Made by a program: the position numbers and the translations under genes. Below are positions 2,713 to 62,574 of a DNA stretch of 64,000 bases, piece after piece. The DNA is from a virus: IMG/VR virus record IMGVR_UViG_3300030497_000015; one strand, written 5' to 3'. The notes beneath the pieces were generated by a model. That model was not told the origin of the DNA, made no database searches, and was given only the letters and a program-made list of their open reading frames with translations. How positions within the stretch are numbered: the stretch's first letter is position 1; the number at the start of each line of letters is the position of its first letter.

Positions 2713-2919
2713 TTATTCGGGTTTCTTCGGGTCTCTGACGACTCCGATTACGACTAGCAAGCCGATAACATAGTTAAAAGTATCGGTATACTTGACGACG
2801 GCTTTTGCGTCTACGACTCCGAGGTTTAATAGAAGTCCGAAGATAGCTGACGCTATAATCCCGAGAGTGACTTTGTCAGTCAAACGGGTTTTCAGTTCTT
2901 TAAGAGTGATCTTCCTCAT
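2713..2919 (-). CDS. Holin
   Basis: 68 aa, two hydrophobic segments, GVVRDP C-terminus; follows endolysin. Confidence 0.8.
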   Translation of the reverse strand: MRKITLKELKTRLTDKVTLGIIASAIFGLLLNLGVVDAKAVVKYTDTFNYVIGLLVVIGVVRDPKKPE

Positions 2920-2959
2920 GCGATTTCACCTCCTCGAAAGAGGGGAGGGGAGTCCTCCC

Positions 2960-3706
2960 TTATTTTAGTTTTCGAAGCTGCTCGGTCATTGCTGTACGAG
3001 TCTTAGGACCGAAGATGCCGTCCGCAGGATTGCAGTATACGGATTGGAAGCGATAAACTGCATCCTTCGTTTTTGCTCCGAAGTAGCCGTCTGCTGTGCC
3101 GCAGTTGAATTTTAAAGCGTTAAGTCCTTTTTGTAAGACCCTGATCGCTTCTCGATTCGTGCTCTTAGTAGAAAGAGTCATGTTCGGCAGAACTAGCAAA
3201 GCAAGGGGATTCTTCGACTTAGTTTCTGTTTTCTTAGCAGGAGCCTTCGTAGCAGCCGGCTTCTTTGCGGGAGCCTTGTCGAGAACCTTATCCGTGCCAT
3301 ATCCTTTGTACTCGAATTGAAGATGCGGAGAGTCGACGAAGTCCTCATCGGAAGTCTTTCCGTCATTGTCCCAATCCGCCCCCCATGTGAAGCCTAGACG
3401 TTTCGCTTCTGCGATAGCCTTCTTCATTGCTGCCGTGTGGTATGCTGATTGGCTCCATTGAGCTTTTCCTTTTACGATCGGTACGAAGTCAAGAGCCTGT
3501 CCGACTAAGTGATAAGACTTCATCGTTTGGGAAGCTCCCGAAGCGACATTCGCTCTCTGCTCGGCCTCTGTACGACGTGCATCGTAGATTAAAAGGTCTA
3601 AGTTATTTTTCTCAAGGAACTCGTGCCATTTCGTAGCTGCTGCTCTCGTATTCGGAGCAAGTTCTTTGATCGTTGCTAGATTTCGAGTTTTGTAAGTGAT
3701 TGCCAT
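2960..3706 (-). CDS. Endolysin, M15-type L-Ala-D-Glu peptidase plus peptidoglycan-binding domain
   Basis: R..AEQ, SYHLVGQALD, WGADW, DSPHLQ motifs; C-terminal DGYFGAKT/DGIFGPKT; start MAITYK with GGAGG RBS. Confidence 0.85.
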   Translation of the reverse strand: MAITYKTRNLATIKELAPNTRAAATKWHEFLEKNNLDLLIYDARRTEAEQRANVASGASQTMKSYHLVGQALDFVPIVKGKAQWSQSAYHTAAMKKAIAEAKRLGFTWGADWDNDGKTSDEDFVDSPHLQFEYKGYGTDKVLDKAPAKKPAATKAPAKKTETKSKNPLALLVLPNMTLSTKSTNREAIRVLQKGLNALKFNCGTADGYFGAKTKDAVYRFQSVYCNPADGIFGPKTRTAMTEQLRKLK

Positions 3707-26212: not shown

Positions 26213-26758
26213 ATGAACGTAGTTGAAGCGATCAAGGATAAGAAAGATATAAATAAATTGAAAAAGGCCCTTCCAGATAGAGATAGACTTATGTTTGTAT
26301 TAGGAATAAATACAGGTCTTAGAATTTCGGATGTTTTGGAACTACGTGTTCTCGACCTCCTCGACGAGAACGGCAAGCCGAAAGAAAAGGTTGTCATTCG
26401 TGAGAAGAAAACGAAAAAGAGAAAAGAGTTCCCTTTGAATAAAGCAGTATTAACGGAGCTTAAAAAATTGAAGTACAATTCAATGGAGGATTACATTATT
26501 CCTTCGCAAAAAGGCGGAGCGATCTCGAGAGTACAAGCCTATCGGCTTTTGAACGCTGCCGCAGAACGGGCAGGACTTTCCTTCGAGATAGGAACGCATT
26601 CATGTCGTAAGACATTCGGATATCATGCGATTAAAAATGGAACTCCGATTCACGTAGTACAAAAGCTCTTGAATCATTCGAGCTCCCGTGAGACTCTCCG
26701 ATATGTCGGATTGACTCAAGAAGTTATGGACGATGTTTATATGACGATCAATTTGTAA
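26213..26758 (+). CDS. Tyrosine recombinase, catalytic domain only (probable dimer resolvase)
   Basis: GLRISD, HSCRKTF, LNH, TLRY; own promoter TTGACT-17-TATTAT (26140-26168). Confidence 0.9.
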   Translation: MNVVEAIKDKKDINKLKKALPDRDRLMFVLGINTGLRISDVLELRVLDLLDENGKPKEKVVIREKKTKKRKEFPLNKAVLTELKKLKYNSMEDYIIPSQKGGAISRVQAYRLLNAAAERAGLSFEIGTHSCRKTFGYHAIKNGTPIHVVQKLLNHSSSRETLRYVGLTQEVMDDVYMTINL

Positions 26759-27507: not shown

Positions 27508-27604
27508 CTTTCTATTTGTCTATCTGTCGATGGATGCGAATGCGAGGCGATAAGAGGACGCATATACTCTCTGCCCTCGGCCCTAAAAAAGTTTTAAATT
27601 TTAT

Positions 27605-27632
27605 GTCCCGATCTTCGATGCTGCTTCGCTAA
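27605..27632 (+). promoter_or_regulatory. Phage-sigma promoter
   Basis: GTCCC-17-CGCTAA. Confidence 0.65.
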
Positions 27633-30337: not shown

Positions 30338-30365
30338 TTAGCGAGCGAGGGACGATCATCGGGAC
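30338..30365 (-). promoter_or_regulatory. Phage-sigma promoter
   Basis: GTCCC-17-CGCTAA. Confidence 0.65.
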
Positions 30366-30441
30366 ATATTAATTCATATTTCTTTACGAAAATAAAAAAA
30401 GAAGAGACTTTTCGTCTCTCCTCGTTTTATAACGTTACTTC

Positions 30442-32994: not shown

Positions 32995-33022
32995 TTAGCG
33001 AGCCTCCCAGATAAAACGGGAC
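32995..33022 (-). promoter_or_regulatory. Phage-sigma promoter
   Basis: GTCCC-17-CGCTAA. Confidence 0.65.
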
Positions 33023-33142
33023 ATAAAAAAGTTCTAGCCGAATACAATTTCAACTAGAACGAGAGCATGTTTTTTTGTATATATAATAGGAAGATTCTCG
33101 ACTTTTTCGCATAAAAAAAGAAGGGACCGAAGTCCCCTCGCA

Positions 33143-35894: not shown

Positions 35895-36089
35895 TTATTC
35901 CTCTCCTGCTGTTAGTTCCTCCGTCTCTGTCGCAGATATTAAACATTCGACCGAGCAAAGCTTGTCCGCTTCGAATTTATAATACGTCTGCCCTTCGTAG
36001 ATTTTGGCGGAGCATTGATCGCAGCAAAAACGAGGCCGCTCCTGCTGTTGGTCGGGAAGTCCATACGCAAAACGGTCGAGGCTTATCAT
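35895..36089 (-). CDS. Small Zn-finger protein
   Basis: CCDQC...LCSVEC. Confidence 0.65.
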   Translation of the reverse strand: MISLDRFAYGLPDQQQERPRFCCDQCSAKIYEGQTYYKFEADKLCSVECLISATETEELTAGEE

Positions 36090-36703
36090 TTCGACTCCTC
36101 CTCTAATGCTCTTTCTTTCCTAATGTGAGCAAAGCCCCTTTCGATGCGTAGAATTTCATCTAACTGCTTGAACATATGCTCGAGGTCCTTCGAGTTGTCG
36201 ACGATGTAGTCGGCGGGGAATTTACTTATATGCTTTTCCGTCTCGTGATTCAAGAACTCGGGTTTTACCTCTTCGCCTGCTGCCTTCATTCTCTCGATGC
36301 GAATATGCTCGGGAGTTTCTATCTTAATCATGACGAATCCGTTCCCTTTGAGATGAGCGAACTCGTTCGGCTGCCTCATATCAGTAACAAATACCGAAGC
36401 TCCTTCGTTCTTGAAGGGCTGCATCGCTGCGTCGAGTTTATCTATCCAGACTGTCGGCTTATGGAATCTCGCTGTCTGTCCGAACCATTGATAACCGTTC
36501 CGCTCCTTTACTGCTTCCGATTGACCGAATATCTCGTGATAGTAACGTTTTAATGCGTCTCCATATGCGAGCTTTACTCGGGGATATCCGATTTTCTTCA
36601 TCATGTAAGCTGCTGCCGTGTCTTTTCCTCCTCGCATTTCTGAGAAGATTGAGAAAAGATGCTGCTCGCCTAAGTAGAGTTTTCCTCGATTAGTTCCTAT
36701 CAT
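36086..36703 (-). CDS. Deoxynucleoside monophosphate kinase
   Basis: RGGKDTAA P-loop variant, YQWFGQ, VTDMRQPNE, HETE. Confidence 0.85.
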   Translation of the reverse strand: MIGTNRGKLYLGEQHLFSIFSEMRGGKDTAAAYMMKKIGYPRVKLAYGDALKRYYHEIFGQSEAVKERNGYQWFGQTARFHKPTVWIDKLDAAMQPFKNEGASVFVTDMRQPNEFAHLKGNGFVMIKIETPEHIRIERMKAAGEEVKPEFLNHETEKHISKFPADYIVDNSKDLEHMFKQLDEILRIERGFAHIRKERALEEESK

Positions 36704-37025: not shown

Positions 37026-37053
37026 TTAGCGTCCTACTGCCGCATATCGGGAC
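37026..37053 (-). promoter_or_regulatory. Phage-sigma promoter
   Basis: GTCCC-17-CGCTAA. Confidence 0.65.
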
Positions 37054-37071
37054 ATAAAAAAAGAGAGAAGC

Positions 37072-37432: not shown

Positions 37433-38290
37433 TCACCTCCCCTCGACTATGACATCGAGAGTCTTTTCTCCGAATGCTCGAGCCCGTGAAAGGTCGCTTA
37501 TGAATACATCTATCTCGTGAAAATCGATCGCCCCTCCTCGGTCCTCACATACCCCAGAAATGCCGAGAGAAGGAATAGACATCTTTGTCCCGAACGAGAA
37601 CTCCGGACCGCAAGCGAGCGTCCTGCCCTCTGTGACTGTCGTTCCCGATGCGGTGATTCCGTAGCCTGCCTCTCCTGCCTTCTTTTGAGTGCTCTCGTAG
37701 CCTGCCGTATATGCCGTAACGTGCATTCGAATTGTCTGTCCGCTCTGTTGCTGCGGGGCCGCTTCTTTTATAGGTCTACTTTGAGTATCCCTTCGAACAT
37801 CTCCTCGAGTATCTCGAGAGGAATTGAGTTGAGCTTGTTTTCGCTGTTGGGCTTCGTGAGCCTTTCGAATCTCTTCCGCTTTTCGCTTTCGAGCTTCTGC
37901 GATACGGAGAGCTTTCTCCTTCTCCCTATCTTCGGCGGCTTTAATTTCTTGAGCTCGTTTAAAAGCCATCTCAAGATTCGACTTCTTCTCCGTCGTTTTC
38001 TCGAGTTCATATCGTTCTACCTCCTTTTCGAATTTCTTGAGAGCCTCATGTGAGCTTACCGAGGGACTCTCCTTTCCCATGAGTTCGACTTCTGCCGTGT
38101 CATGGTGTCTATACTGCGGGACTGCTGCGACTGTCGATGCTACTATGAACATCGCTGCGATGAATCCGAAGAGAAATCTCTTTTTAAAGAGGGCTACTCT
38201 CCTCGATTCCTCCTGCCGCTTCTGTTTTTCTAGCTGACGAAGCTGCCTGCGTTTCGCCTTCCTCCTCTTGAGTTCCTTTTGATTCTGCAT
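37433..38290 (-). CDS. Membrane-anchored 3D-domain protein (lytic transglycosylase-like)
   Basis: TM, coiled coil, then VTAYT...GITASG...EDRGGAI...IDVF. Confidence 0.85.
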   Translation of the reverse strand: MQNQKELKRRKAKRRQLRQLEKQKRQEESRRVALFKKRFLFGFIAAMFIVASTVAAVPQYRHHDTAEVELMGKESPSVSSHEALKKFEKEVERYELEKTTEKKSNLEMAFKRAQEIKAAEDREKEKALRIAEARKRKAEEIRKAHEAQQRKQAQLNSSRDTRGDVRRDTQSRPIKEAAPQQQSGQTIRMHVTAYTAGYESTQKKAGEAGYGITASGTTVTEGRTLACGPEFSFGTKMSIPSLGISGVCEDRGGAIDFHEIDVFISDLSRARAFGEKTLDVIVEGR

Positions 38291-38858
38291 TCGTGAATGC
38301 CTCCTTGTAATGACGACGACAAACGGAGATATACTCCTCGTCCCCGACTTGTATTTGCTCCCCGTCAATAGCAGGAGAGCCGTCCACGAGTCGAAGATTC
38401 ATCGTCGCTTTCTTTTCGCATCTCTCGCATATGGAGATAATCTCTTCGATGCGTTCTGCGTAGGCGAGTAAAGCTGCTGAGCCTTCGAAAAGGTCGTTTT
38501 TAAAGTCGTTCTTTAATCCGTAGCAAAGTACGGGGATTCCTAATCGGTCGACTACCTCCGCCGCTTGTTCGACTTGCTCCCTCGTGAGGAACTGAGCCTC
38601 ATCGACGAGAATCACGTCTGGACGCAAGAAAGTCGCATACTCAAGAATCTTCATCGGCTCGTAACCGCTCCATGCGTGAGCATCTCGAGTGATGCCCCAT
38701 CGAGAAGAGATTTTCCCCTTGCCTGACCTCGTATCTATGCTCGGAGTAAAGAGCATTACTTCCCGACCTTTTCTCTCGTAGCTTGTAGCTGTTTTGAGAA
38801 GCTCGAGACTCTTTCCTCCATCCATCGGACAATATTTGAAATAGAGATTCGCCATCAT
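38184..38858 (-). CDS. tdk: Thymidine kinase
   Basis: MDGGKS, ILVDEAQF, CYGLKNDF, CERC, YISVCRRHY. Confidence 0.95.
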   Translation of the reverse strand: MMANLYFKYCPMDGGKSLELLKTATSYERKGREVMLFTPSIDTRSGKGKISSRWGITRDAHAWSGYEPMKILEYATFLRPDVILVDEAQFLTREQVEQAAEVVDRLGIPVLCYGLKNDFKNDLFEGSAALLAYAERIEEIISICERCEKKATMNLRLVDGSPAIDGEQIQVGDEEYISVCRRHYKEAFTNAESKGTQEEEGETQAASSARKTEAAGGIEESSPL

Positions 38859-38900: not shown

Positions 38901-38928
38901 TTAGCGAATGCGGTCTCCATATCGGGAC
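38901..38928 (-). promoter_or_regulatory. Phage-sigma promoter (tdk)
   Basis: GTCCC-17-CGCTAA. Confidence 0.65.
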
Positions 38929-39000
38929 ATAAAAAAAGAGCCCCGAAGGGCTCAAGAACGCAAAAAAGACGAGCCGAAGCCCGTCCTTATACTGATTAGT

Positions 39001-42950: not shown

Positions 42951-42978
42951 TTAGCGTCCTGCTGCCGAGTTCTGGGAC
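42951..42978 (-). promoter_or_regulatory. Phage-sigma promoter (nupC)
   Basis: GTCCC-17-CGCTAA. Confidence 0.65.
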
Positions 42979-42980
42979 AT

Positions 42981-43694
42981 TTAGTATTGAATTATCTTTC
43001 GATCGAGCTCGTTAAGAGCTGCGTCTACTTGACGAAGGACCTCGACTGCATCCTCCGGACGTGTGATGTCGATTTTATCCGCATCTATTACGAGAACTTG
43101 AGACTTGTCGTAATGATTGAAAACCCAATCATCATAACGAGAGTGAAGTTCCCGCATATAGTCCTCGAGTTCGGGATTATCCTCGAATTGCTCAAAGGAG
43201 CGGCCCCGCTGCTTAATGCGGCTCTCTATCGTTTCGAATGAAGCTCGTAGGTAGATAAATAAGTCCGGACGCTTCTTCGGAGTATCTTCGAGATTCTCGA
43301 CCTCTTCGAGCATGTTCTCGAGTAAGTCGACATAACATTCGTATTCTGCGGCTGCCATGTTTGGCTCGTAGTATTTGCCCGTTACCTTCCCGAAGTATCC
43401 CTCTGCATTTAAGCTTGCGAAGAGTGAATCCTCGTAGATGCTCCTGTCGAGGACGTTGTTTCTGTGTCGCATTGCTCTTTTTATATCTCTGAATCGAGTG
43501 TTTAAAAAGTAGACTTGAAGCGGGAAGGCATATCTCGACTTGTCTGCGTAGAATAATTCGAGTAGTCGATTATCGTCGACACTCTCGAAGAATGCCTCGC
43601 TCCCTAGATGCTTGCTTATTAGTTTTGTATAAGATGTTTTTCCAGCTCCGATCATCGCTCCGATAACTATCACGGAATCTCTCCCTTTCTGCAT
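42981..43694 (-). CDS. Deoxynucleoside kinase (dNK family)
   Basis: GAMIGAGKT, DRSIYED, IKQRGRSFE. Confidence 0.95.
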   Translation of the reverse strand: MQKGRDSVIVIGAMIGAGKTSYTKLISKHLGSEAFFESVDDNRLLELFYADKSRYAFPLQVYFLNTRFRDIKRAMRHRNNVLDRSIYEDSLFASLNAEGYFGKVTGKYYEPNMAAAEYECYVDLLENMLEEVENLEDTPKKRPDLFIYLRASFETIESRIKQRGRSFEQFEDNPELEDYMRELHSRYDDWVFNHYDKSQVLVIDADKIDITRPEDAVEVLRQVDAALNELDRKIIQY

Positions 43695-45597: not shown

Positions 45598-46023
45598 TTA
45601 CTCTATCCCGACGATTGCTTTCGCTTCTTCGAGTGTTTCGCATAACCATAGACGAGACTCTTTTTCTGCGAACTCCTTGCGAAGCTCTGCGATTTTCTCG
45701 TTTACGTCGCCTAACATTAAGTTATTTCTTCGATTAGAATATTTACTATATGTCGGGCTGTTGTATGAATAGTTATTATTTATATTTATATATTTACCCG
45801 TCTTTGCATTTAGCTCATCGCTTAGTTGAGCAAGTCGGACTCTTAGACTTTTCATTTCCTCGACGATTCCAGATACTCCGAACTCTTCATCTACGACCTT
45901 TTCGGCTTCGTCGTGAGTCATTTGCTGACTTCTAATCTTTGCGATTTCCTTCTTTTCCTTTTCGTTTAACATTGCGATAAGGGCTTTTACTCGCTGAGCT
46001 CCTAATACGTTTAACTTCGCCAT
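45598..46023 (-). CDS. Hypothetical coiled-coil protein
   Basis: Start MAKLNV; coupled ORF. Confidence 0.65.
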   Translation of the reverse strand: MAKLNVLGAQRVKALIAMLNEKEKKEIAKIRSQQMTHDEAEKVVDEEFGVSGIVEEMKSLRVRLAQLSDELNAKTGKYININNNYSYNSPTYSKYSNRRNNLMLGDVNEKIAELRKEFAEKESRLWLCETLEEAKAIVGIE

Positions 46024-46301
46024 TATTTCGACTCCCCTTCCTGTTGTGTTTGCGGCTGTGGACGTTCTACGTAAACATATCGAGCGACTGACGCATTCGC
46101 CCAAAAGGCTACTTCTTCGAGCTTCGATAATGCTTCGGCTAGTTCTCGACTATCAGGACATAGCTCGATTAATTTATAAGCATACTCTTTCGCTGTCCCT
46201 CGAATAGTCTCGTATTTCTCGGCTGATTGTGGGTCCGCTCTATGGAAAGAGAAGTTATTTTCGATTACTGCTGAGTAATGCTCCTTAGTTTGCTTGTTCA
46301 T
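46023..46301 (-). CDS. Acb2/Tad1-like helical-hairpin protein (possible immune-signal sponge)
   Basis: NNFSFH...CPDSRELAEALSKLEEVAFWANASVAR. Confidence 0.6.
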   Translation of the reverse strand: MNKQTKEHYSAVIENNFSFHRADPQSAEKYETIRGTAKEYAYKLIELCPDSRELAEALSKLEEVAFWANASVARYVYVERPQPQTQQEGESK

Positions 46302-46974
46302 TTGCTAACGCCTCCTCGACTTCGATGTCACTTGCTTTCTTGCGTTCTGTGAAGTTACCTTCCTTGTCGACTGATTGAACGAATGCTCCTTTAGGGATAA
46401 AGCTTAAAGGACGATCGGGCATGTCGATAACTGTATTTTGATATTCGAATCGACGAATCCCCTTCGATTCTAGTTTTTCGAATGCTTTCTTTAGGATTTC
46501 GATAGTCATTGATACATCGCTCATCGCTTGATGATGTCCTTCGTATTTGATACCTAGTCGCTCCACGACATGTTTCAAAGATGCGGACTCTGTCGGCTCT
46601 GCTAGTTTCATCATTGCACGAGTGCATAAGAAGAAGTCGGGACGTACTCCGAATTTATCTAGGAAAGATAAGTCGAACGGTGCATTCTGTACGACGACCG
46701 TAGTTCCTTTCGAGAATAATCCGAACATGATTGCGACGAATTGCTCGGGATAAGCTCCGAATAAGTCGTCCTCTGTGATGCCGGTTAGATTAACGATGAA
46801 CTCCGAAAGCTCCTGCCCTTCGTTTAAAGCTGCTCGCATATTTAATCGGCCGAACTCCTTTTCTAAGTCCGTTTGAATCGCTGCGAGCTCGATGATCTGG
46901 CAACCGTTCGGGTCTAGCCCTGTTGTTTCGATATCTAAAATTGTGAATAATTCCTTCGCTGCTTTCTGTTTCAT
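46285..46974 (-). CDS. DnaQ-like DEDDh 3'-5' exonuclease
   Basis: LDIETTG, QNAPFDLSF, HQAMSD. Confidence 0.9.
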   Translation of the reverse strand: MKQKAAKELFTILDIETTGLDPNGCQIIELAAIQTDLEKEFGRLNMRAALNEGQELSEFIVNLTGITEDDLFGAYPEQFVAIMFGLFSKGTTVVVQNAPFDLSFLDKFGVRPDFFLCTRAMMKLAEPTESASLKHVVERLGIKYEGHHQAMSDVSMTIEILKKAFEKLESKGIRRFEYQNTVIDMPDRPLSFIPKGAFVQSVDKEGNFTERKKASDIEVEEALANEQAN

Positions 46975-47186
46975 TATCTTTCTTCCTCCCATTTTTGCTT
47001 TTTGTAGTTATATATTTGAATAGGACTGATTGCCTCTACGTTGTTGATCTCTGCGACTCCGACATTACTTAAAACGAAGTGATTATTTCGTGCGGATAGC
47101 TTCGCCTTTCCGATGCTGTCGAATGGAATTGACCATATTAACTCGCCTGAATGTATGTCGACGATTCCGAACTTACGGTTACTCAT
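46974..47186 (-). CDS. Small protein, paralog 3 of tandem trio
   Basis: GIVDIHSGE...IGKAKLSA...KWEE. Confidence 0.65.
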   Translation of the reverse strand: MSNRKFGIVDIHSGELIWSIPFDSIGKAKLSARNNHFVLSNVGVAEINNVEAISPIQIYNYKKQKWEEER

Positions 47187-47461
47187 TTTACTTCCCGCCA
47201 TTTCTCCGATTCTTTGTCGAGATGATGCTCTACTCCTGTCGGAATGATTTTGACTTCGGCTACTACATAGCGATTGTCGGAATGATATCTGTTTTTCTCC
47301 CGAGCTGCTCGCTTTGCTCCTCCTCTATTTACGTAGACATCTCCGTGATATCTGACTTCGACTGCTCCTGTCTGAGTATTCTTAATCGCAAAGCCTTCGA
47401 GTATCTTCTCGCTTTCTGCGATGTGTTCGCCTGTCTGCGAATTTATTAACATATGACTCAT
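47183..47461 (-). CDS. Small protein, paralog 2 of tandem trio
   Basis: NTQTG...RGGAKRAA...AEV...KWRE. Confidence 0.65.
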   Translation of the reverse strand: MSHMLINSQTGEHIAESEKILEGFAIKNTQTGAVEVRYHGDVYVNRGGAKRAAREKNRYHSDNRYVVAEVKIIPTGVEHHLDKESEKWREVK

Positions 47462-47670
47462 CGAACGTCCTCCCATTTTTTCTTGTCCTTGTTGTATCTC
47501 GATATAGGTCCGACGATCACTGACTTAATCTCGGCGGCTCCGAACTTTTCGGGGTTTATTCGCTGCTTTGCTGATAACTTCGCATGACCGATATTATCGA
47601 AAGTCTTATCTCCTGCGATCTCTCCCGTTTCGATATTTACTACTGAATATTTACGCTTCGATGTGCTCAA
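47458..47670 (-). CDS. Small protein, paralog 1 of tandem trio (TTG start)
   Basis: SVVNIETGE...IGHAKLSA...KWED; GAGGAGG RBS. Confidence 0.65.
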   Translation of the reverse strand: MSTSKRKYSVVNIETGEIAGDKTFDNIGHAKLSAKQRINPEKFGAAEIKSVIVGPISRYNKDKKKWEDVR

Positions 47671-48760
47671 GCCAATAAGCCTCCTCTCCGTATTTGAACT
47701 CATAAGGACGGCAGTTCTCGAAGTCCCATTCGCTCGGGTCGTATTCACTCATCCACTGAGTCTCGATAACTGTATCGGACTTTAGGGGGAGTGATAATTC
47801 GACCGTGTTAATCATGCAGTCCGTTATTAACTCGCATACTTCAAGTGAAAGTTCCTTCACGGGAAGCGATGCTTTTACTTCATCGTGGATAGATGCGTTT
47901 AGCTCCCATCCTCGAGACTGACATTCCTGTCGAAGCCTATTCATATTCATTTTGAGAATATCGGCTCCCGTTCCTTGAATAACTGCGTTAAAGGCCGCCC
48001 GTTCCCAATAGCCGACGAGTCCCCTTTCTTCTGCAAGAGGCTCGATCGCTTCGTTGAGAGCTTTGATATCTTCTAGGTCTTTCGCAGTTTTTGCGATCTT
48101 ACGGTTTAACTTCGCTCTATCTTGATAAAGCATCGTAAGCCTTCGCTCGTTTCGTTTGACTCGAGCTGCTACTACGTTATAATCTGGGAACCTTCTCTTT
48201 CTTCCGAAGAGTGTCTCGACATATCCGTTTTTCTTCATAAAGTCTCGAATATCACGAACCATCGTTATGAACGAAGGAAACGCATCATCGAACTTCTGAT
48301 AAAACATGATTGCGACTTCTTCCGATACTCCCATATTCCGAGCGAAGGATTTCATCTGCTGATCGTATGATTTCGCAAGAACTCCCGTTTTCATCATTGC
48401 TCGGGGCTTGAATCGTCCCGTCGGGTCGTATGCCTTATCTACGCAATACTTTTCCTCGAGGCCGAATACGAGCATCGCCATCGTTGTATATAAGTCCTTT
48501 CCGTCGATGAATATTTGTCGAAGTGAGTTGTCGCCATATTGCGTAAACATTATATGCCCCATAATACGAGGCTCGATTTGACTCAAGTCGGCAGCTCCGA
48601 AAACCCATCCTTTCTTAGGTTTAAAAGCATTTCGTACTCGGGTCCCGTCTCCTCTTGACGGTAGGTTTTGAAGGTTTGAACCTTTCGATATTTCCTTCGT
48701 GTTCGTCGAGATTAACTTCTTGACGATGTCGTGATAATTCTTATCCGTGACGTTTAGCAT
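47651..48760 (-). CDS. polA: DNA polymerase family A, C-terminal half
   Basis: NLQNLP, ADLSQIEPR (motif A), YVETLFGRKR, IQGTGADILK, IHDE (motif C); own RBS and ATG. Confidence 0.95.
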   Translation of the reverse strand: MLNVTDKNYHDIVKKLISTNTKEISKGSNLQNLPSRGDGTRVRNAFKPKKGWVFGAADLSQIEPRIMGHIMFTQYGDNSLRQIFIDGKDLYTTMAMLVFGLEEKYCVDKAYDPTGRFKPRAMMKTGVLAKSYDQQMKSFARNMGVSEEVAIMFYQKFDDAFPSFITMVRDIRDFMKKNGYVETLFGRKRRFPDYNVVAARVKRNERRLTMLYQDRAKLNRKIAKTAKDLEDIKALNEAIEPLAEERGLVGYWERAAFNAVIQGTGADILKMNMNRLRQECQSRGWELNASIHDEVKASLPVKELSLEVCELITDCMINTVELSLPLKSDTVIETQWMSEYDPSEWDFENCRPYEFKYGEEAYWLEHIEA

Positions 48761-49272
48761 GTCGCTTCCCTCCTCTCTGGGGAGTTCTGATAGTGAATAC
48801 CTCGATAAGCTGCGGCGGCTGCACCTGCCTCCTCGGGAGTTTTGAAAGAGCCGATATATTTACACTTTCCACCTACCCTTGCCGTAGCTCTGTAAGTTCC
48901 TTTAGCTTTTTGGTAAGAGACTCCCTTATATCCCGTTTTATTGTTCGCATTTGCTTTATGTCTGTTTTGTAGGTTTTCCGATTGCGTTACTACCTTGAGA
49001 TTAGACTTACGATTGTCTAACGTATCTCCCGATAAATGATCGACAACGAATCCTTTCGGAGCATCCATGATAACTCGATGTAAATAAGGACGTTCTTTTC
49101 CAACCGTTGCTTTGATATAACTCTTTCTGCTGTTTACTTTTGATATATTCCACGATGTGTACTGAATTTTTGACAGGTCCTCCGTGTCGATTAAGACCTC
49201 GAACTTATCCCCGTTCTTTCGTTCAATAAAAATAACTGTTATTTCTCCTCTGACTTCAAACTTATTTTTCAT
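48754..49272 (-). CDS. HNH homing endonuclease with AP2-like domain
   Basis: LHRVIM, VVDHLSGDTLDNRKSNL, TGYKGVS...YIGSF. Confidence 0.9.
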   Translation of the reverse strand: MKNKFEVRGEITVIFIERKNGDKFEVLIDTEDLSKIQYTSWNISKVNSRKSYIKATVGKERPYLHRVIMDAPKGFVVDHLSGDTLDNRKSNLKVVTQSENLQNRHKANANNKTGYKGVSYQKAKGTYRATARVGGKCKYIGSFKTPEEAGAAAAAYRGIHYQNSPERREATC

Positions 49273-49294
49273 TAAAAAACCTCCCTCGCTTTGT

Positions 49295-49322
49295 TTAGCG
49301 AAGAAGGCTTCTTTTCTGGGAC
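49295..49322 (-). promoter_or_regulatory. Phage-sigma promoter (HNH and polA C-half)
   Basis: GTCCC-17-CGCTAA. Confidence 0.65.
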
Positions 49323-49323
49323 A

Positions 49324-49482
49324 TTAGTTTATTATTTTTTTCTCGGACTTGAGTACGATTCCCGCATGGAAATACTCGACGATCTCTTCTACGATCTGAC
49401 TGCGAGTGAGTCTGCCGTCGAAGTGCTGCTCAAGTTCACCGAGCTTCTTGCCGACTTCGTCCGATACTGTTAGCTTTTTCAT
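49324..49482 (-). CDS. Small RHH-like protein (not in ORF track)
   Basis: MKKLTVSDEVGKKL...TRSQIVEEIVEYF. Confidence 0.55.
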   Translation of the reverse strand: MKKLTVSDEVGKKLGELEQHFDGRLTRSQIVEEIVEYFHAGIVLKSEKKIIN

Positions 49483-49631
49483 GATTTCGCCTGCTCTCTA
49501 TTAAATGTTTTCGTAAGGATGTGACGCTGTGCCTCGAGTCCTGCTAGTACGATTTGATTCTCGGTGACGTCCTCTAATCCATTTTGACGATAGAGCTCTT
49601 TAAGCTCGAATATGAGTCTTTCGTACGTCAT
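49479..49631 (-). CDS. Small hypothetical protein (50 aa, not in ORF track)
   Basis: MTYERLIFELKEL...; coupled on both sides. Confidence 0.55.
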   Translation of the reverse strand: MTYERLIFELKELYRQNGLEDVTENQIVLAGLEAQRHILTKTFNREQAKS

Positions 49632-49632
49632 A

Positions 49633-50523
49633 TTAGTTCGTCCTTTCTAAGATGATTTTCTTAATGATCGGAGCGATTACTCGAGAAACGCATCCTCGAA
49701 GTTCTTTCTCTCCGAACTCTGCTTCCATTAAGTCGGACTCTTCTTCGATAATATCCTGCGTAACTGCCGGCCCCATAACCTTTAAAACTCGACCCATGTC
49801 CTCGAGCTGAATTGTAGGCGGGAACTCTTTAAGAAGGATTTTCTCGACTCGAGCCCGTGTTACCGTCTGTTCTACGAACTGCATAACGACCGACTTATTT
49901 TTCTCTTTCTGCGGCCTTACTCCCATGAACTCGGAGAACTCCTGAGATACGTACTTGACGATCATCTGCGGATTTTTACGATATGCTTTCACGACTACTC
50001 CTTCGCCTCGCTCGCCTAGTTTAGATTTGCCGACGAAAGATTTTATATGCTCCTCGGAGATGTAAGGTCCCGAGTAGAACTTCGGAGCCATCGTAAGCCC
50101 TAGAGTATGAGACTCGAGCATTACGTATAAATACTCGATGAAGCCTCCCCACCCATCGACTGAGTTGTCGTAGATATCGAATAAGTAGAACTTCCCTTCG
50201 TTTTCTCCATAATCGAGCTGGTGTCGAACGAGCCATTCTCCATAATAGATAAGACCTTCCTCGAACTCTTCCACGGGTAGGGATTGCACGAATCCATAAA
50301 AGCCCCTTAGTGTTTCGGACGCATCTAGTTTCCTGTTTCGAGAGTATGCGACTAACTTGTCGCCCTCACGAGTGAAGCTCGCATTCGCTCCGTCTAACTT
50401 CTCGAAAATTACGATGTGATCTCCTTCCTCGAATCTTGTACCCTTCTTCCCGTATCTCGGGACTTTCGGATATTTTCTGATGTGCTCTGTGTTTGTGCTC
50501 TCGATTGTTGTTAATGTTGTCAT
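49633..50523 (-). CDS. ATP-dependent RNA ligase (Rnl2-like)
   Basis: EKLDGAN (I), YYGEW (III), FYLFDI (IIIa), EGVV (IV), VKYVSQEF (V). Confidence 0.85.
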   Translation of the reverse strand: MTTLTTIESTNTEHIRKYPKVPRYGKKGTRFEEGDHIVIFEKLDGANASFTREGDKLVAYSRNRKLDASETLRGFYGFVQSLPVEEFEEGLIYYGEWLVRHQLDYGENEGKFYLFDIYDNSVDGWGGFIEYLYVMLESHTLGLTMAPKFYSGPYISEEHIKSFVGKSKLGERGEGVVVKAYRKNPQMIVKYVSQEFSEFMGVRPQKEKNKSVVMQFVEQTVTRARVEKILLKEFPPTIQLEDMGRVLKVMGPAVTQDIIEEESDLMEAEFGEKELRGCVSRVIAPIIKKIILERTN

Positions 50524-50605
50524 AGTTTTATCGCTCCTCGAATTTAATCGAACTCGCTAGAGTTCCAATTTTTCGAGAGCAACAAAAAAGAGCCCCTCGC
50601 TTGTA

Positions 50606-50633
50606 TTAGCGAAGAGCTCTCGTGCTTTGGGAC
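50606..50633 (-). promoter_or_regulatory. Phage-sigma promoter (RNA ligase)
   Basis: GTCCC-17-CGCTAA. Confidence 0.65.
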
Positions 50634-50642
50634 ATTAGTTTA

Positions 50643-52442
50643 TTAAGCCGTGACTTCGAACTCTTTTAATAGGTCCGTTCTCCGGCCGTTATATCCTTGT
50701 GAAGAATAGCGTCCCGTACTTGTTCCCGTGGAGTTCCATTGACAGTGGAATCGACCGTCTACATCGAGAGCCTCGGGGATTTTACGAACGTAAGTCGAAA
50801 GCAGCTTCTCATATGCTGCGATCGTTGCGAGAGGTTTTAAGCTCTCCTCATCCTCGTAATACATATCGAGAACGGCTGCGGCAGTTGATCGAGTTTTTCC
50901 TCGTTGAACTCTCGGAGTCTTATCTTCGATTTGAAGATAGTCGTATATTAAATATCCGATGTGAGAGTTGTTTGTGAGCTCGAATGCTTCGATCATAAAT
51001 GGAGAATCCTTCTCGTCGAGAGAGATTTCCGATAGCTGCTGCATGTATCTGTTCTTTTGGTCCTGCGTTCCTGTGTATCGCTTGAGATGCGTTTTGTCTT
51101 GATCTTCTAATTCTTTGAGAATTTGCTTTTGCTTTTTGATCTGAGCTTCGAGCTTCTCTTTTTTCGCCTGTTGTTTCTTCTTCCATCCGTGAATCTTTGT
51201 ACCGTTGATCGTCTTAGACATCTGATATAAGAAGTCCTCATCGATCTTGTACGTAGAGAATAACTGCTCTTTCGCATCCAGAAGCTTTTGCTCGAACTCT
51301 TCCTCCATTGCTGAGAGCTCTTTTAGTGAAATATTGAAGCCTGCTCGGGCCATAAATACGTCTGTCTCGGGAAGATGCGAGTCGATCTCGGCATAACATT
51401 CGAGAAGTCGATTCGTCTTTTTCATTGTTTCGAACTGCCATTCGAATAGATACCATCCGTAATAAACGTCCCATATCGCATAGATTCCGACTACCATCGT
51501 GTTAAACGGTGCGGGAGAGCCATTTCCGAAAAGGTCCTCGAAAGTATAGATTTCCTTTTCTCCTACTTCCTCGATATATTTTCCGTATTTCTGCATTAAC
51601 GGCTTGAGTCCGTATCTGTCGAGATGCTCTGTCATGATTTTCATTGCGTCGAGTGTGTCCCATCTCATACCCTTAATCGAATAACCGTCGTTCTCTGAGA
51701 TGTGTAAGTCATAGCGAGCCGAACCCATATGAAAGGTCTTGCCGTGCATTCCTGCTGATAGATAAGGCGAGATTGCTTCGATTACCTTCGATCGTGTGAG
51801 CTGATCGTCTCCCTTTTTGAACGCATATTCCTCGGGGATATGTTCGAAGCCCTCGGCTCCTCTCATGTCGACATGTCCATATGCGAGATAGAATCCTTCC
51901 TTGAGAATCGGAAGCCATATCGAAAAGCCGATCGAAAGGTCCATATAAGAGTCGATGCCTGTTCCCTCGAAGTCTCCTGCTGTCATGGATTGAACTCCTA
52001 GAACCTTGAATCGGTCCTTCCATTCGATCGCTTGAGCATTGACTTCGTCTCGGATTCTCTGGACGACACTCGGGAGCTGCTTATCTCGAGTAATGACGTA
52101 GAAGTTTTCGGGCCTATTTCCGATCACGTCTGCGATTCTTTGCTCTCGGATGATCTCCTCGTTTGCTTTTTTAAGCTGCATCCCCATCGAGAGAACTTCG
52201 CCCTTATTGAGCTTCCCTTCTCCGAGCCTGCCGATCTTTCCCGAGAAATATCCGTCTCTCGCAAGAATAAAGAGTTCGAGCTCCTTGTCGTTGAATTTCA
52301 TTTGCGACACTCTATCGAATGCCTCCTCGATTGTTTCCGAAGCATCCTTCTTCTTTGCCTTTGCTGCTGCCGCAGCTTTTCGCTTGTCCTCGGAATTGTC
52401 CTGTCCGAGTGATAGATTATTGAACGATAATTCTAGTTTCAT
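50643..52442 (-). CDS. polA: DNA polymerase family A, N-terminal half (3'-5' exonuclease and thumb)
   Basis: DFEGTG, ARYD, YAIWD, ends GTSTGRYSS... Confidence 0.9.
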   Translation of the reverse strand: MKLELSFNNLSLGQDNSEDKRKAAAAAKAKKKDASETIEEAFDRVSQMKFNDKELELFILARDGYFSGKIGRLGEGKLNKGEVLSMGMQLKKANEEIIREQRIADVIGNRPENFYVITRDKQLPSVVQRIRDEVNAQAIEWKDRFKVLGVQSMTAGDFEGTGIDSYMDLSIGFSIWLPILKEGFYLAYGHVDMRGAEGFEHIPEEYAFKKGDDQLTRSKVIEAISPYLSAGMHGKTFHMGSARYDLHISENDGYSIKGMRWDTLDAMKIMTEHLDRYGLKPLMQKYGKYIEEVGEKEIYTFEDLFGNGSPAPFNTMVVGIYAIWDVYYGWYLFEWQFETMKKTNRLLECYAEIDSHLPETDVFMARAGFNISLKELSAMEEEFEQKLLDAKEQLFSTYKIDEDFLYQMSKTINGTKIHGWKKKQQAKKEKLEAQIKKQKQILKELEDQDKTHLKRYTGTQDQKNRYMQQLSEISLDEKDSPFMIEAFELTNNSHIGYLIYDYLQIEDKTPRVQRGKTRSTAAAVLDMYYEDEESLKPLATIAAYEKLLSTYVRKIPEALDVDGRFHCQWNSTGTSTGRYSSQGYNGRRTDLLKEFEVTA

Positions 52443-52747
52443 TCGATCGTACCTCCGTCGAAAAGAATAATATAGTCCGACATGAAATTGACTACGATGT
52501 CTCCTCCGATATCCTCGTGAATTGTTCGCAAGATATCGAAGTAAGTCCCCTCGTCATTGCAGAACTCTTCTTCCTCGACGATCATATTCATAATGACGTT
52601 TTCTTCCCCGTTGTCGCCGAAGAATCTTTCCTTTATTACGTTCCAGACTTCCGATTCATCGAGCGATAACTTCTCGGAAATAAAGCGGATTAAGTCGTCC
52701 CCTTTATACGCTCCTATGATCTTAATGTTTTGAGTTTGTATGTTCAT
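52439..52747 (-). CDS. Hypothetical acidic protein
   Basis: 102 aa, GGAGGAG RBS. Confidence 0.65.
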   Translation of the reverse strand: MNIQTQNIKIIGAYKGDDLIRFISEKLSLDESEVWNVIKERFFGDNGEENVIMNMIVEEEEFCNDEGTYFDILRTIHEDIGGDIVVNFMSDYIILFDGGTIE

Positions 52748-52788
52748 GCGATCTCCTCCAATATAAAATAAAAAGCCCTACGCATTTA

Positions 52789-52816
52789 TTAGCGTAAGGC
52801 TTCTTTCGTTTGGGAC
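52789..52816 (-). promoter_or_regulatory. Phage-sigma promoter (polA N-half operon)
   Basis: GTCCC-17-CGCTAA. Confidence 0.65.
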
Positions 52817-52817
52817 A

Positions 52818-52967
52818 TTATTCCCCTTCGTTCATCATTTCCATAGCATCGCTGTATCCCTGCCAGTTATCGACTCCACATGCTTCTAGGCAGTTTAATT
52901 TCTCTCTATCCTCAAGTAAAGATTCGTACTCTTCCCTTGAAATAGTTATCGTTTTTTCCCCGTTCAT
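52818..52967 (-). CDS. Small hypothetical protein
   Basis: TITISREEYESLL...GVDNWQGY. Confidence 0.65.
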   Translation of the reverse strand: MNGEKTITISREEYESLLEDREKLNCLEACGVDNWQGYSDAMEMMNEGE

Positions 52968-53344
52968 TAGAAAACCTCCTTTGTACTCCGAAGTAATATC
53001 CATTTTTCCCCGATGTTCTTAGGAGTCGCCCAATATTCCTTAATCTCTCGATTTTCGAATACATAGACATTCTCTCCGTGAACTCCGATGATATAATCGA
53101 CATCGCTCTTCGGGTAGATTTCTCCCTTTCCGTTTTTGGCTTGAACTACTATCGCATTCCGATCGGGTCTTTCGATTGCCGTCTTTACTTGATAATACTT
53201 CGTTTCTCCTGTTTTCGGATGCCTTGTCGAAAGGTCGTATGTCTCCGCAGCTAGAGGCATAGATACCTCGTACCCTACCGACATTAAGGCAGCCGCAGCG
53301 AGAAGCTCGTTTTGCTTCCCGACTGCGATTGTATGATGTGCGAT
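52967..53344 (-). CDS. PD-(D/E)XK endonuclease; possible ATC start
   Basis: GK..EL...L...GYEVS.P....YDL...YQVKT; N-terminal part has no upstream ATG. Confidence 0.7.
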   Translation of the reverse strand: MAHHTIAVGKQNELLAAAALMSVGYEVSMPLAAETYDLSTRHPKTGETKYYQVKTAIERPDRNAIVVQAKNGKGEIYPKSDVDYIIGVHGENVYVFENREIKEYWATPKNIGEKWILLRSTKEVF

Positions 53345-54252: not shown

Positions 54253-54280
54253 TTAGCGTTTATGTTTTATCTTCTGGGAC
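54253..54280 (-). promoter_or_regulatory. Phage-sigma promoter (SSB)
   Basis: GTCCC-17-CGCTAA. Confidence 0.65.
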
Positions 54281-54409
54281 ATGAGATTTTATTTCTTTTA
54301 CGGCTTCTTGCGTTTCCTCATCGAGCCAATAATCCCCCGCCCAATCTGCCGCAAGCAATACGTCTTGGAGTTTCTTTTTATCGACTGTAATCGTTATTTG
54401 TTCGCTCAT
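54260..54409 (-). CDS. Small hypothetical protein
   Basis: Start MSEQIT. Confidence 0.5.
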   Translation of the reverse strand: MSEQITITVDKKKLQDVLLAADWAGDYWLDEETQEAVKEIKSHVPEDKT

Positions 54410-54952: not shown

Positions 54953-55642
54953 TTACATCACCTCCGCTGCTTTTTCGTACTCGTCGACGAATGAGGCCAT
55001 ATCTTTTCGGAATCGGAAGATGAATTTCCGCATAGAATCGGAGTTCCCGCCCGATTCTGCTGCGATTTCCTCTGCTAATTCTGTGAAGTTGATTTCCTTC
55101 TCGTCCATAAAACGAAGAAGTAGTTTGCGACGTTTCTCGTCTGTACCGAATTTTTCGAATAATGCTGCTACGACTTCGGACTTTTCGATCTGCTCTTCGA
55201 TGAAAGCTTTTTCGTCTGTGAACTGAACGACTGATTTGCTCTCGCCCTCACCCTCACTCCAAGCCGTAAGCTCATCGTAAGAAGCCTCATTTTTTGAATA
55301 GCTTGTACGACGTTTATAAAATTCTCTCGTTGTTCTTTCGAATGTTCTTCGAACAAGTGCCTCGAAGTCTCCCTTTCCTGCCGCATATGTAAGCGTACAT
55401 TCCATTAATCTCTTGCGAAGGCGACGCTCGAAGGCAGTCGAGCCGTTCTCGTCTTTCGTTTTATTGAAGTTTGGTCCGTGCTGATCTTGCAAACTTCGAA
55501 TAATTCCGTCGAACTCCATCATTAAGTACCACATTGATTCCGTGTAGTTCTCTTCGTGTAGGCTTGTCCCTGCTGCTTTTAATGTTTGAGTGTCTGCTTG
55601 TGCTTTGATTGCTAGTGCGTTAATTTTTTTAGATTTAGTCAA
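54953..55642 (-). CDS. Phage sigma-70-like factor
   Basis: Region-2-like TYAAGKGDFEALVRRTF; C-terminal HTH FTELAEEIA...SMRKFIFRFR; TTG start. Confidence 0.65.
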   Translation of the reverse strand: MTKSKKINALAIKAQADTQTLKAAGTSLHEENYTESMWYLMMEFDGIIRSLQDQHGPNFNKTKDENGSTAFERRLRKRLMECTLTYAAGKGDFEALVRRTFERTTREFYKRRTSYSKNEASYDELTAWSEGEGESKSVVQFTDEKAFIEEQIEKSEVVAALFEKFGTDEKRRKLLLRFMDEKEINFTELAEEIAAESGGNSDSMRKFIFRFRKDMASFVDEYEKAAEVM

Positions 55643-55727: not shown

Positions 55728-55755
55728 TTAGCTCATGGGTGTGAATGTCTGGGAC
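55728..55755 (-). promoter_or_regulatory. Phage-sigma promoter (sigma autoregulation)
   Basis: GTCCC-17-AGCTAA variant. Confidence 0.55.
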
Positions 55756-55845
55756 ATTGATTTTTTAAAAACTTTTAAAAACCCTTAATTTTTTTTGGAA
55801 TTAGTCGGCATGAAGCGAATATTTTTTTCGAATTTCGTTTTGGAC

Positions 55846-58507: not shown

Positions 58508-58702
58508 TTAATCTTCTTCGTCTGAGATAGATACTTCGAGGTCGAGTTCTGGATTTTCTACTTCGATTTGGTCTGCGATGATCTCTTCGACTACGCTTTC
58601 GGGCTGCATTTTGCCGTTATACATGATATCCCTTTCGCTGCATCCCGATAAGATTGCGATTAATCCGAGTCCTACTCCTGCGGCTGCTAGTCTCTTTTTC
58701 AT
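58508..58702 (-). CDS. Lipoprotein
   Basis: Signal peptide with lipobox LSGC. Confidence 0.8.
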   Translation of the reverse strand: MKKRLAAAGVGLGLIAILSGCSERDIMYNGKMQPESVVEEIIADQIEVENPELDLEVSISDEED

Positions 58703-59139
58703 TAAATCATCGCTCCTTCGAATCTATTTCGTGCCATTTTCTCGAAGTCATAAAGCATAAGTTCCGTCATGCTGCCGACGAACGCATGTAATGAATCGCT
58801 TATCATAAGATTCATTCGGTCGCTTTCCCATCCTTCAAAAAGTACTACACAAGGAATACGATTTGCATACGCATACCCAAGCTCCCACATAGTACCCTCG
58901 TCTTTTCCGTTATAAATAGCGACGACTATATCTGCTTTGTGAATGTTCGTTACATCATTTGCGAATACTGCTTCTCGCCATTCTTTCGATGCTGGCTCTA
59001 ATCCTTTTAACTGATTAAGTCTCGGGCTCCATACTTTCAAACCTTGATCTTCTAAGATTTTTTCTACTGTTGATACTCTTCTGATCTCCTCTGCGTTGAA
59101 GAACGGAGCTGCTAAATATACTTTGATATCTTTTTTCAT
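58702..59139 (-). CDS. Nucleoside 2-deoxyribosyltransferase family protein
   Basis: VYLAAPFF, ADIVVA, DEGTMWELGYAYA. Confidence 0.9.
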   Translation of the reverse strand: MKKDIKVYLAAPFFNAEEIRRVSTVEKILEDQGLKVWSPRLNQLKGLEPASKEWREAVFANDVTNIHKADIVVAIYNGKDEGTMWELGYAYANRIPCVVLFEGWESDRMNLMISDSLHAFVGSMTELMLYDFEKMARNRFEGAMI

Positions 59140-62502: not shown

Positions 62503-62530
62503 TTAGCTCTTGCGTTCTTTTATCTGGGAC
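62503..62530 (-). promoter_or_regulatory. Phage-sigma promoter (replication operon)
   Basis: GTCCC-17-AGCTAA variant. Confidence 0.55.
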
Positions 62531-62574
62531 ATTATGCGAACAAAAAAAAATACGAGAGCTCGTAGAGCGACTCG

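Follow-up and report, generated by a model that had tools for sequence, protein, structure and literature searches.

Did the genes that now lie inside a phage DNA polymerase gene break it in two, and do the two pieces still make one enzyme? This question is raised by a family A DNA polymerase (PolA) locus in the 64,000 nucleotides (nt) of IMG/VR virus record IMGVR_UViG_3300030497_000015 analyzed here (the window), in which an N-half and a C-half of the polymerase are encoded separately, with four open reading frames (ORFs) in the gap between them, all on the minus strand (Table 1). The window makes up approximately the whole of the 64,357-bp record, which CheckV rates as complete, and by its PHROG matches it belongs to a siphovirus, with a replication module made up of a helicase loader, a helicase, and a primase. 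An earlier note, made from the sequence alone, had held that an RNA ligase/HNH cassette split the gene. We instead favor, with a probability of about 85%, a naturally split two-subunit family A polymerase whose intercistronic junction is a swappable gene slot.

A family A DNA polymerase broken inside its polymerase domain

As judged by profile matches and conserved catalytic motifs, both halves are family A DNA polymerase (PF00476). On the 381 positions of the DNA_pol_A profile, the N-half covers 28 to 125 (41.7 bits) and the C-half covers 116 to 380 (159.4 bits), the two stretches adjoining with a slight overlap and both scores lying above the cutoff of 34.3. PHROGs keeps a separate family for each half (Table 1), the first sign that the split extends beyond this phage. 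The N-half runs from an N-terminal helical region through a 3'-5' exonuclease region, the thumb, and the TGRYSS strand to an 18-amino-acid (aa) tail (QGYNGRRTDLLKEFEVTA), its C terminus reading ...TGRYSSQGYNGRRTDLLKEFEVTA before the stop codon; the C-half, whose N terminus reads MLNVTDKNYHDIVKKLISTNTKEISKGSNLQNLP, consists of a 27-aa head (MLNVTDKNYHDIVKKLISTNTKEISKG), NLQNLP, and motifs A, B, and C. In alignments with Taq polymerase, the N-half matches residues 481 to 580 and the C-half matches residues 575 to 739 and onward, with TGRYSS at 571 to 576 and NLQN at 580 to 583. These two motifs stand on either side of the break, which thus lies inside the polymerase domain. In PolA structures, this place adjoins residues that contact the primer terminus. 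Canonical PolA has a turn of 3 to 4 residues here, whereas this clade has an insertion of ~40 residues.

Residues T576-G577-R578 are invariant in 21 N-halves, and D58, R120, K124, Y132, and H292-D293-E294 are invariant in 40 C-half sequences and align to the Taq motifs; we take these residues to be the TGR element and motifs A, B, and C. Judging from the aligned relatives, conservation at the protein level covers both junction tails, reaching the stop codon of the N-half and beginning at the start codon of the C-half. Columns Y584, G586, R587, and L592 of the N-tail are invariant in 21 sequences (consensus in relatives, SxGYxGRPIDILxEF), and the C-head has the consensus (V/I)TDxNYHxIVxKL. No other DNA polymerase was detected among 41 larger ORFs scanned with PHROGs or 12 ORFs scanned with Pfam. 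Direct reading of the sequence bears out the halves, their termini, and the break between TGRYSS and NLQN as given in the earlier note, as well as an insert of ~1.9 kb with four genes (1,882 nt, four ORFs) and a ribosome-binding site (RBS) of its own before the C-half ATG (GAGAGGAGGGAAGCGAC). The latter sits within the 3' end of the HNH ORF, the final 7 nt of which overlap the start of the C-half.

The same break recurs with different genes in the gap

A single-protein scan of viral contigs recovered nothing, whereas an alignment-based query recovered 26 further close loci; the resulting set of 28, including those of phages Tripp and Halcyone, represents all close viral loci with readable DNA context. 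Five distant loci (L029 to L033; 24 to 29% identity) had no N-half match and were left out of the count. In all 28 close loci, the N-half stops and a separate C-half starts at the same position, between TGRYSS and N(L/A)QN. The gap is −4 nt in four loci (an ATGA or GTGA overlap), +5 nt in one, 157 to 328 nt in 17, 532 nt in one, and 1,282 to 2,300 nt in five. The eight close loci in bacterial genomes among the matches listed (Paenibacillus, Brevibacillus, Thermoactinomyces, and Neobacillus) are likewise all split at this position, with gaps of −10 to 276 nt, though three of the eight seem to repeat contigs already counted. At the protein level, there are at least 202 C-half-sized clusters at E ≤ 1e-30, and the 119 relatives listed, the first being the window's own protein, are 333 to 385 aa long.

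What lies in the slot differs widely. Pfam matches identify DUF7296 (Halcyonevirus and L010), DUF6440 (L013), a Mom family protein together with a repeat protein (L003), and HNH (L022), and further slots hold SH3/KOW-like repeat proteins and small ORFs of no family. Pfam gave no match above the cutoff for the large repeat proteins in L009, L014, and L017 (that of L018 was left out of the scan), nor did the other small slot ORFs scanned with Pfam have a match. An HNH gene occupies the slot in 2 of the 29 loci with DNA context, namely, the window and L022, and Pfam recognized no endonuclease remnants in the other gaps. L006 and L013 have RNA ligase homologs 3' of the C-half; none was found in the DNA examined of the other 26 viral loci. 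Elsewhere in the window, we found neither the relatives' cargo genes nor HNH paralogs. In a tree of 54 chosen C-half rows, the window falls in a 14-row clade (Shimodaira-Hasegawa-like approximate likelihood ratio test support, 98) with the slot-empty L004 and L005 and with repeat-protein loci; the other HNH carrier, L022, falls in the other major clade. Different cargo also occurs beside near-identical polymerases (L025/L024, L006/L010, and L012/L002).

Because the same break is present in relatives with an empty slot or with other cargo, also within the window's own clade, the cassette appears to have entered an existing junction. By these comparisons, the split is old and widespread, and the ligase/HNH cassette is a passenger in a pre-existing junction rather than its cause. 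Thus, the proposal that the cassette split the gene does not hold, most of the other loci carrying unrelated cargo and four having a mere stop/start overlap.

Two further observations concern the slot. The Mom family DNA modification gene of L003 (positions 2918 to 3667 of that locus) was matched with an E value of 6.7e-48. In many relatives (the L004, L005, L015, and L025 junctions and L026, L007, L016, and others), the N-half ends in …GAAACGGAGGGG TAA, coding for ETEG and containing a GGAGG that doubles as the RBS of the next gene; the window's N-half is without this terminal GGAGG, and a terminator/promoter element comes next instead.

Fused relatives and the direction of change

When longer proteins were searched, nine fused protein clusters (P0001 to P0009) were recovered, 905 to 946 aa long and 55 to 65% identical to the C-half. 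P0001 runs straight through the junction (...DILEGFTEVTDDNYFEIV...), reading FTEVTDDNY where P0004 has SEVTDGNF and P0007 has REVTDENY. The in-frame join of the window's halves, EFEVT/DKNY, agrees with these, in line with the comparison with uninterrupted homologs that the earlier note had proposed. More distant fused polymerases (≤47% identity) are without the NYHxIVxKL segment.

Two trees of fused and split forms were built. The first took in 70 of the 119 near-length relatives (the first 20 and every second one) and 37 of the first 49 longer proteins, the 12 others having no exact TGR[YL]SS match; the second was restricted to 52 chosen rows. In both, the nine fused forms fall within the split clade, at three places, a pattern suggesting that an anciently split gene became fused again. 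In the 52-row tree, the starred branches force at least two changes, and parsimony gives four changes if the split form is ancestral, versus at least seven, counted by hand on that tree, if the fused form is.

Predicted assembly of the two halves

An AlphaFold2 model of fused P0001 (59 aligned sequences; mean predicted local distance difference test score [pLDDT], 91.7; predicted template modeling score, 0.83) places the break-equivalent FTE/VTD (residues 594 to 599) in a coil (592 to 601) between short helices (588 to 591 and 602 to 611), with block pLDDT values of 90 to 95 around it. A complex model of the window's halves scored 0.85, versus 0.00 for the best of three controls, with at least 95% contact agreement between runs and a partner pLDDT of at least 88. 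Its interface takes in residues 574 to 597 of the N-half and 1 to 34 of the C-half. The model passes a mark that 116 of 157 solved complexes reached, as did 2 of 215 mismatched pairs, though such a pass may show likeness rather than binding because single-chain PolA structures have been solved.

We accordingly picture a two-subunit enzyme as follows. The halves would be translated separately, by coupling in the relatives with a stop/start overlap and each from its own RBS in the window, and would assemble noncovalently through an interface that is intramolecular in single-chain PolA, with the N-tail and the C-head helix forming part of it. Since the two cistrons would be independent, the junction between them would be a safe place for insertions.

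The HNH gene and a known intron insertion site

The window's HNH protein can be classed as homing endonuclease-like on the basis of its HNH motif, its DNA-binding module, and its sporadic distribution; it had no sequence match in PDB and none in NCBIfam. Homologs occur in 649 phage records from many hosts, all at ≤43% identity among the 25 listed, and phage Goe10 has a copy of the family where SPO1 has none. The slot HNH of L022 is 36% identical to that of the window over 177 aligned positions, and I-HmuI has only the HNH motif in common with it (44% over 32 aa).

In SPO1 gene 31, exon 1 ends in TGRLSSNEP and exon 2 starts with NAQQFP, and the PolA introns of Pf-WMP3, SPO1, SP82, and Bastille are reported to lie at one common position (PMC3428280). 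The SPO1 exons thus meet at TGR/NxQ, and the split site is a known insertion site of HNH-bearing introns. The likeness consists in the same enzyme position with an HNH gene at the site; unlike those introns, which as described there self-splice to give one polypeptide, the window has no detectable ribozyme. The HNH gene of the window would most likely persist through intron-less homing, its product cleaving polymerase alleles with an empty slot in co-infecting relatives.

A phage-specific promoter-like motif in the slot

The bipartite motif ATGTCCC-N18-GCTAA occurs 12 times in the window (11 times on the minus strand), versus never in 100 shuffles. The copies are intergenic, often right after a T-run, and none was found in the 33 other loci, which makes the motif specific to this phage. 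It looks like a promoter for a phage-specific sigma factor or another RNA polymerase factor. Three copies lie in or near the polymerase locus, and each overlaps a strong hairpin with a U-run behind it (Table 1), the stems of the three differing by compensatory changes. The two gap copies had earlier been described as phage-sigma promoters; both belong to the 12-copy set, and each also overlaps a predicted terminator hairpin.

If so, transcripts from upstream would end at these hairpins, whereas those initiated at the promoter would start inside the hairpin, without its 5' arm, and so escape termination. The window's slot would then comprise two modules, one of the RNA ligase and two small ORFs and one of the HNH-AP2 gene cotranscribed with the C-half, each starting at a promoter-like element that overlaps a terminator hairpin; together with the N-half, this would give three units under one promoter class (N-half; ligase module; HNH plus C-half). 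The 3' arm of the hairpin before the HNH gene holds the GGAGG RBS of that gene, which would therefore be masked on read-through RNA. A 229-aa ORF farther along the window shows a weak RpoE-like sigma match (NCBIfam, E 0.0023, far below the cutoff); it is a possible reader of the motif.

Alternative explanations

We weighed four other accounts of the locus. De novo fission in the window's own lineage, with the ligase/HNH cassette inserted at GTCACGG into an intact gene, could draw on the presence of this 7-nt word at both junctions, on the EFEVT/DKNY join as in fused relatives, and on the HNH gene adjoining the C-half. It is nonetheless very unlikely, given the same break in all 28 viral and all 8 genome loci, mostly without HNH or ligase, the presence of empty slots and other cargo within the window's well-supported clade, and the agreement of the N-tail and C-head boundaries with those of the relatives. 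The 7-bp repeat noted earlier is real but is weak evidence: at least 7 nt are shared by 5% of shuffled 30-nt junction pairs (P ~0.05), and a junction match of this length occurs in just 3 of 25 loci, each with a different word. At this chance level and with relatives lacking the same word, we rejected GTCACGG as a target-site duplication. Less improbable, although still unlikely in our estimate, is that homing endonucleases or intron relics created and spread the split and that the present cargo replaced decayed endonuclease genes. The coincidence with the SPO1, SP82, Bastille, and Pf-WMP3 intron site, the related HNHs in the slots of the window and L022, whose lineages are distant, and the interleaving of fused and split forms on the tree point this way; against it stands the rarity of HNH in the slots and the failure of Pfam to recognize remnants in the other gaps.

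The remaining two accounts deny that there are two working polypeptides, and we consider both extremely improbable. Rejoining of the halves, whether through a group I intron, an intein (whole or split), or joining of RNA by the ligase encoded in the gap, would fit the HNH-bearing group I intron at exactly the same site in SPO1-type phages and the RNA ligase gene inside the gap. However, an Rfam cmscan gave no hit at E ≤ 1 in positions 47000 to 53000 of the window or in the Tripp and Halcyone loci, while the same settings detected the ORF-bearing SPO1 intron (Intron_gpI, 25.6 bits, E 4.6e-4); relatives with gaps of −4 or −10 nt have no room for an intron; and Pfam detected no Hint or intein domain in the window's halves and gap ORFs, the tails, conserved as protein, being only 18 and 27 aa long. 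The ligase itself scores well above its profile cutoff (PF09414, Rnl2-like; 72.3 bits versus 27) and has in translation a KLDGAN, presumably the nucleotidyl-transferase lysine motif, with no sequence match in NCBIfam or PDB. Rejoining by it, floated as a speculation in the earlier note, was rejected because L006 and L013 have its homologs outside the gap and the DNA examined of the other 26 viral loci showed none. A two-polypeptide PolA with neither intron nor intein, as that note preferred, is thus the most likely arrangement, with no ribozyme or Hint signal and the catalytic columns kept. As for a decaying pseudogene in a phage dependent on the host polymerase, nothing speaks for it directly, although an integrase-like fragment suggests a temperate past; the catalytic columns are invariant across 21 N-half and 40 C-half sequences, at least 202 protein clusters keep the architecture, as do cultured Halcyonevirus phages capable of lytic growth, and helicase, primase, and loader genes stand alongside.

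Several points weigh against a naturally split polymerase with a swappable slot, or narrow it. The split is not universal, since nine fused relatives nest in the split clade, and the history that we favor, one early fission with later re-fusions, takes its direction from quick trees and parsimony. The split counts are without P0122 to P0125, the window's nearest relatives (72 to 73% identity in the C-half alignment; 69 to 74% by BLASTP). Assembly of the two polypeptides into one enzyme is inferred from sequence and the model, and the promoter and terminator roles are putative assignments from motif statistics and folding only.

Relation to known split polymerases and other split genes

The closest cultured relatives, the Halcyonevirus phages of Paenibacillus larvae (Tripp gp65/gp67 and Halcyone gp59/gp61), have the same break and the same tails, with halves 52 to 61% identical to those of the window. 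They have two annotated DNA polymerase genes with one 105- to 110-aa DUF7296 gene between them, where the window has the RNA ligase and HNH. A 2018 genome paper on P. larvae phages has the two genes in its table, and the accessible parts of its text do not discuss the split.

Aeromonas phage Aeh1 offers a parallel in another enzyme: nrdA-a/mobE/nrdA-b divides an essential enzyme between two genes that flank a free-standing HNH-type endonuclease gene, and function is reported to be restored by protein assembly rather than splicing, the tails having arisen during mobE insertion (Crona et al. 2011, PMC3045599). The parallel, drawn already in the earlier note, holds for the two ORFs with HNH between them and not for the cause of the fission. 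In contrast to Aeh1 as so described, the window's tails belong to an older insertion, continuous in fused relatives, and the split mostly occurs without an endonuclease, HNH being absent from 27 of the 28 viral and all 8 genome loci.

Among polymerases, the PolA of T7-like cyanophages such as S-SBP1 is split between exonuclease and polymerase into two genes with predicted reassembly, a case that its authors term the first PolA split (Czernecki et al. 2023, PMC10201439). That split, as described, parts the exonuclease from the polymerase domain, whereas the one in the window cuts within the polymerase domain, at TGR/NLQN. Full-text literature searches found no description of a TGR/NLQN split of PolA. 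Reportedly, in work ascribed to Petrov et al. in 2006 and 2010, T4-like Aeromonas phages have a split gp43 (43A/43B), a replicative polymerase whose two cistrons are separated by DNA that varies; this differs from the window's PolA in being a family B polymerase, in a different phage group, broken at a different site.

Essential genes that are split yet function without splicing reveal how much cutting an enzyme can bear before it no longer assembles. In this case, the cut falls inside the polymerase domain, yet it is kept across hundreds of phage and prophage lineages, and it could provide a natural design for two-piece PolA enzymes and a model slot for gene turnover, at one site that links free-standing and intron-borne endonucleases. 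Speculatively, and as a doubtful extension, the TGR/NxQ codons might be a cross-family homing-endonuclease hot spot, yielding an intron in SPO1-type phages and two cistrons with a heritable landing pad in this Bacillales phage clade. HNH homing would carry cargo (here, the ligase module), the split could spread or revert, and fission would be an invasion relic rather than a neutral accident.

Coordinates and neighboring genes

A megablast search of the whole region against phage records gave no match. The two small gap ORFs had no match in Pfam, PHROG, or NCBIfam.

Table 1. Features of the window discussed in the text, including all 12 copies of ATGTCCC-N18-GCTAA
Feature	Position	Strand	Evidence and remarks
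PolA N-half, 599 aa	50643..52442	−	ORF; Pfam PF00476, E 9.4e-11; phrog_12241, E 3e-180
PolA C-half, 369 aa	47651..48760	−	ORF; Pfam PF00476, E 1.7e-46; phrog_10285, E 2.9e-95
Gap between halves, 1,882 nt	48761-50642	−	Four ORFs
RNA ligase-like gene, 296 aa, cargo	49633..50523	−	PF09414, E 7.2e-20; phrog_548, E 1.9e-52
Small ORF, 50 aa, cargo	49479..49631	−	ORF call; no family
Small ORF, 52 aa, cargo	49324..49482	−	ORF call; no family; 4-nt overlap with 50-aa ORF
Free-standing HNH-AP2 homing endonuclease-like gene, 172 aa	48754..49272	−	Pfam HNH_3, E 2.9e-9, and AP2, E 3.8e-4; phrog_99, E 5.9e-35
GTCACGG, N-half end	50648..50654	−	Direct reading
GTCACGG, second copy	48745-48751	−	Direct reading
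Motif copy right after N-half stop	50606..50635	−	Overlaps terminator hairpin 50588-50621 (14-pair stem plus T-run; −25.1 kcal/mol, z −4.78)
Second gap motif copy	49295..49324	−	Overlaps hairpin ~49274-49313 plus U-run (−23.8 kcal/mol, z −5.42)
Third local motif copy, upstream of 102-aa ORF and N-half operon	52789..52818	−	Hairpin 52770-52805 (−21.6 kcal/mol, z −5.43)
Other motif copy	27603-27632	+	
Other motif copies	30338-30367, 32995-33024, 37026-37055, 38901-38930, 42951-42980, 54253-54282, 55728-55757, 62503-62532	−	
229-aa ORF	54953-55642	−	Weak RpoE-like sigma match
DEDDh exonuclease gene	46285-46992	−	RNase_T type
92-aa ORF	46023-46301	−	Acb2/Tad1 hairpin domain, E 7.3e-15
Nucleotide salvage cluster	36086-36703, 38184-38858, 42981-43694, 58702-59139	−	
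181-aa ORF	26213-26758	+	phrog_216, partial

Downstream of the C-half, as in Halcyonevirus, lies a separate exonuclease gene, in addition to the exonuclease region that the N-half contains. A 92-aa ORF situated just downstream of the polymerase module matches the Acb2/Tad1 hairpin domain above the cutoff; its product is a candidate sponge for cyclic-nucleotide defense signals. The 181-aa ORF, whose integrase family match is partial (positions 49 to 237 of 301), is possibly a truncated integrase. The window also encodes a nucleotide salvage cluster (dNMP kinase, thymidine kinase, thymidylate kinase, and nucleoside deoxyribosyltransferase), possibly a sign that nucleotide pools are altered or bases modified.

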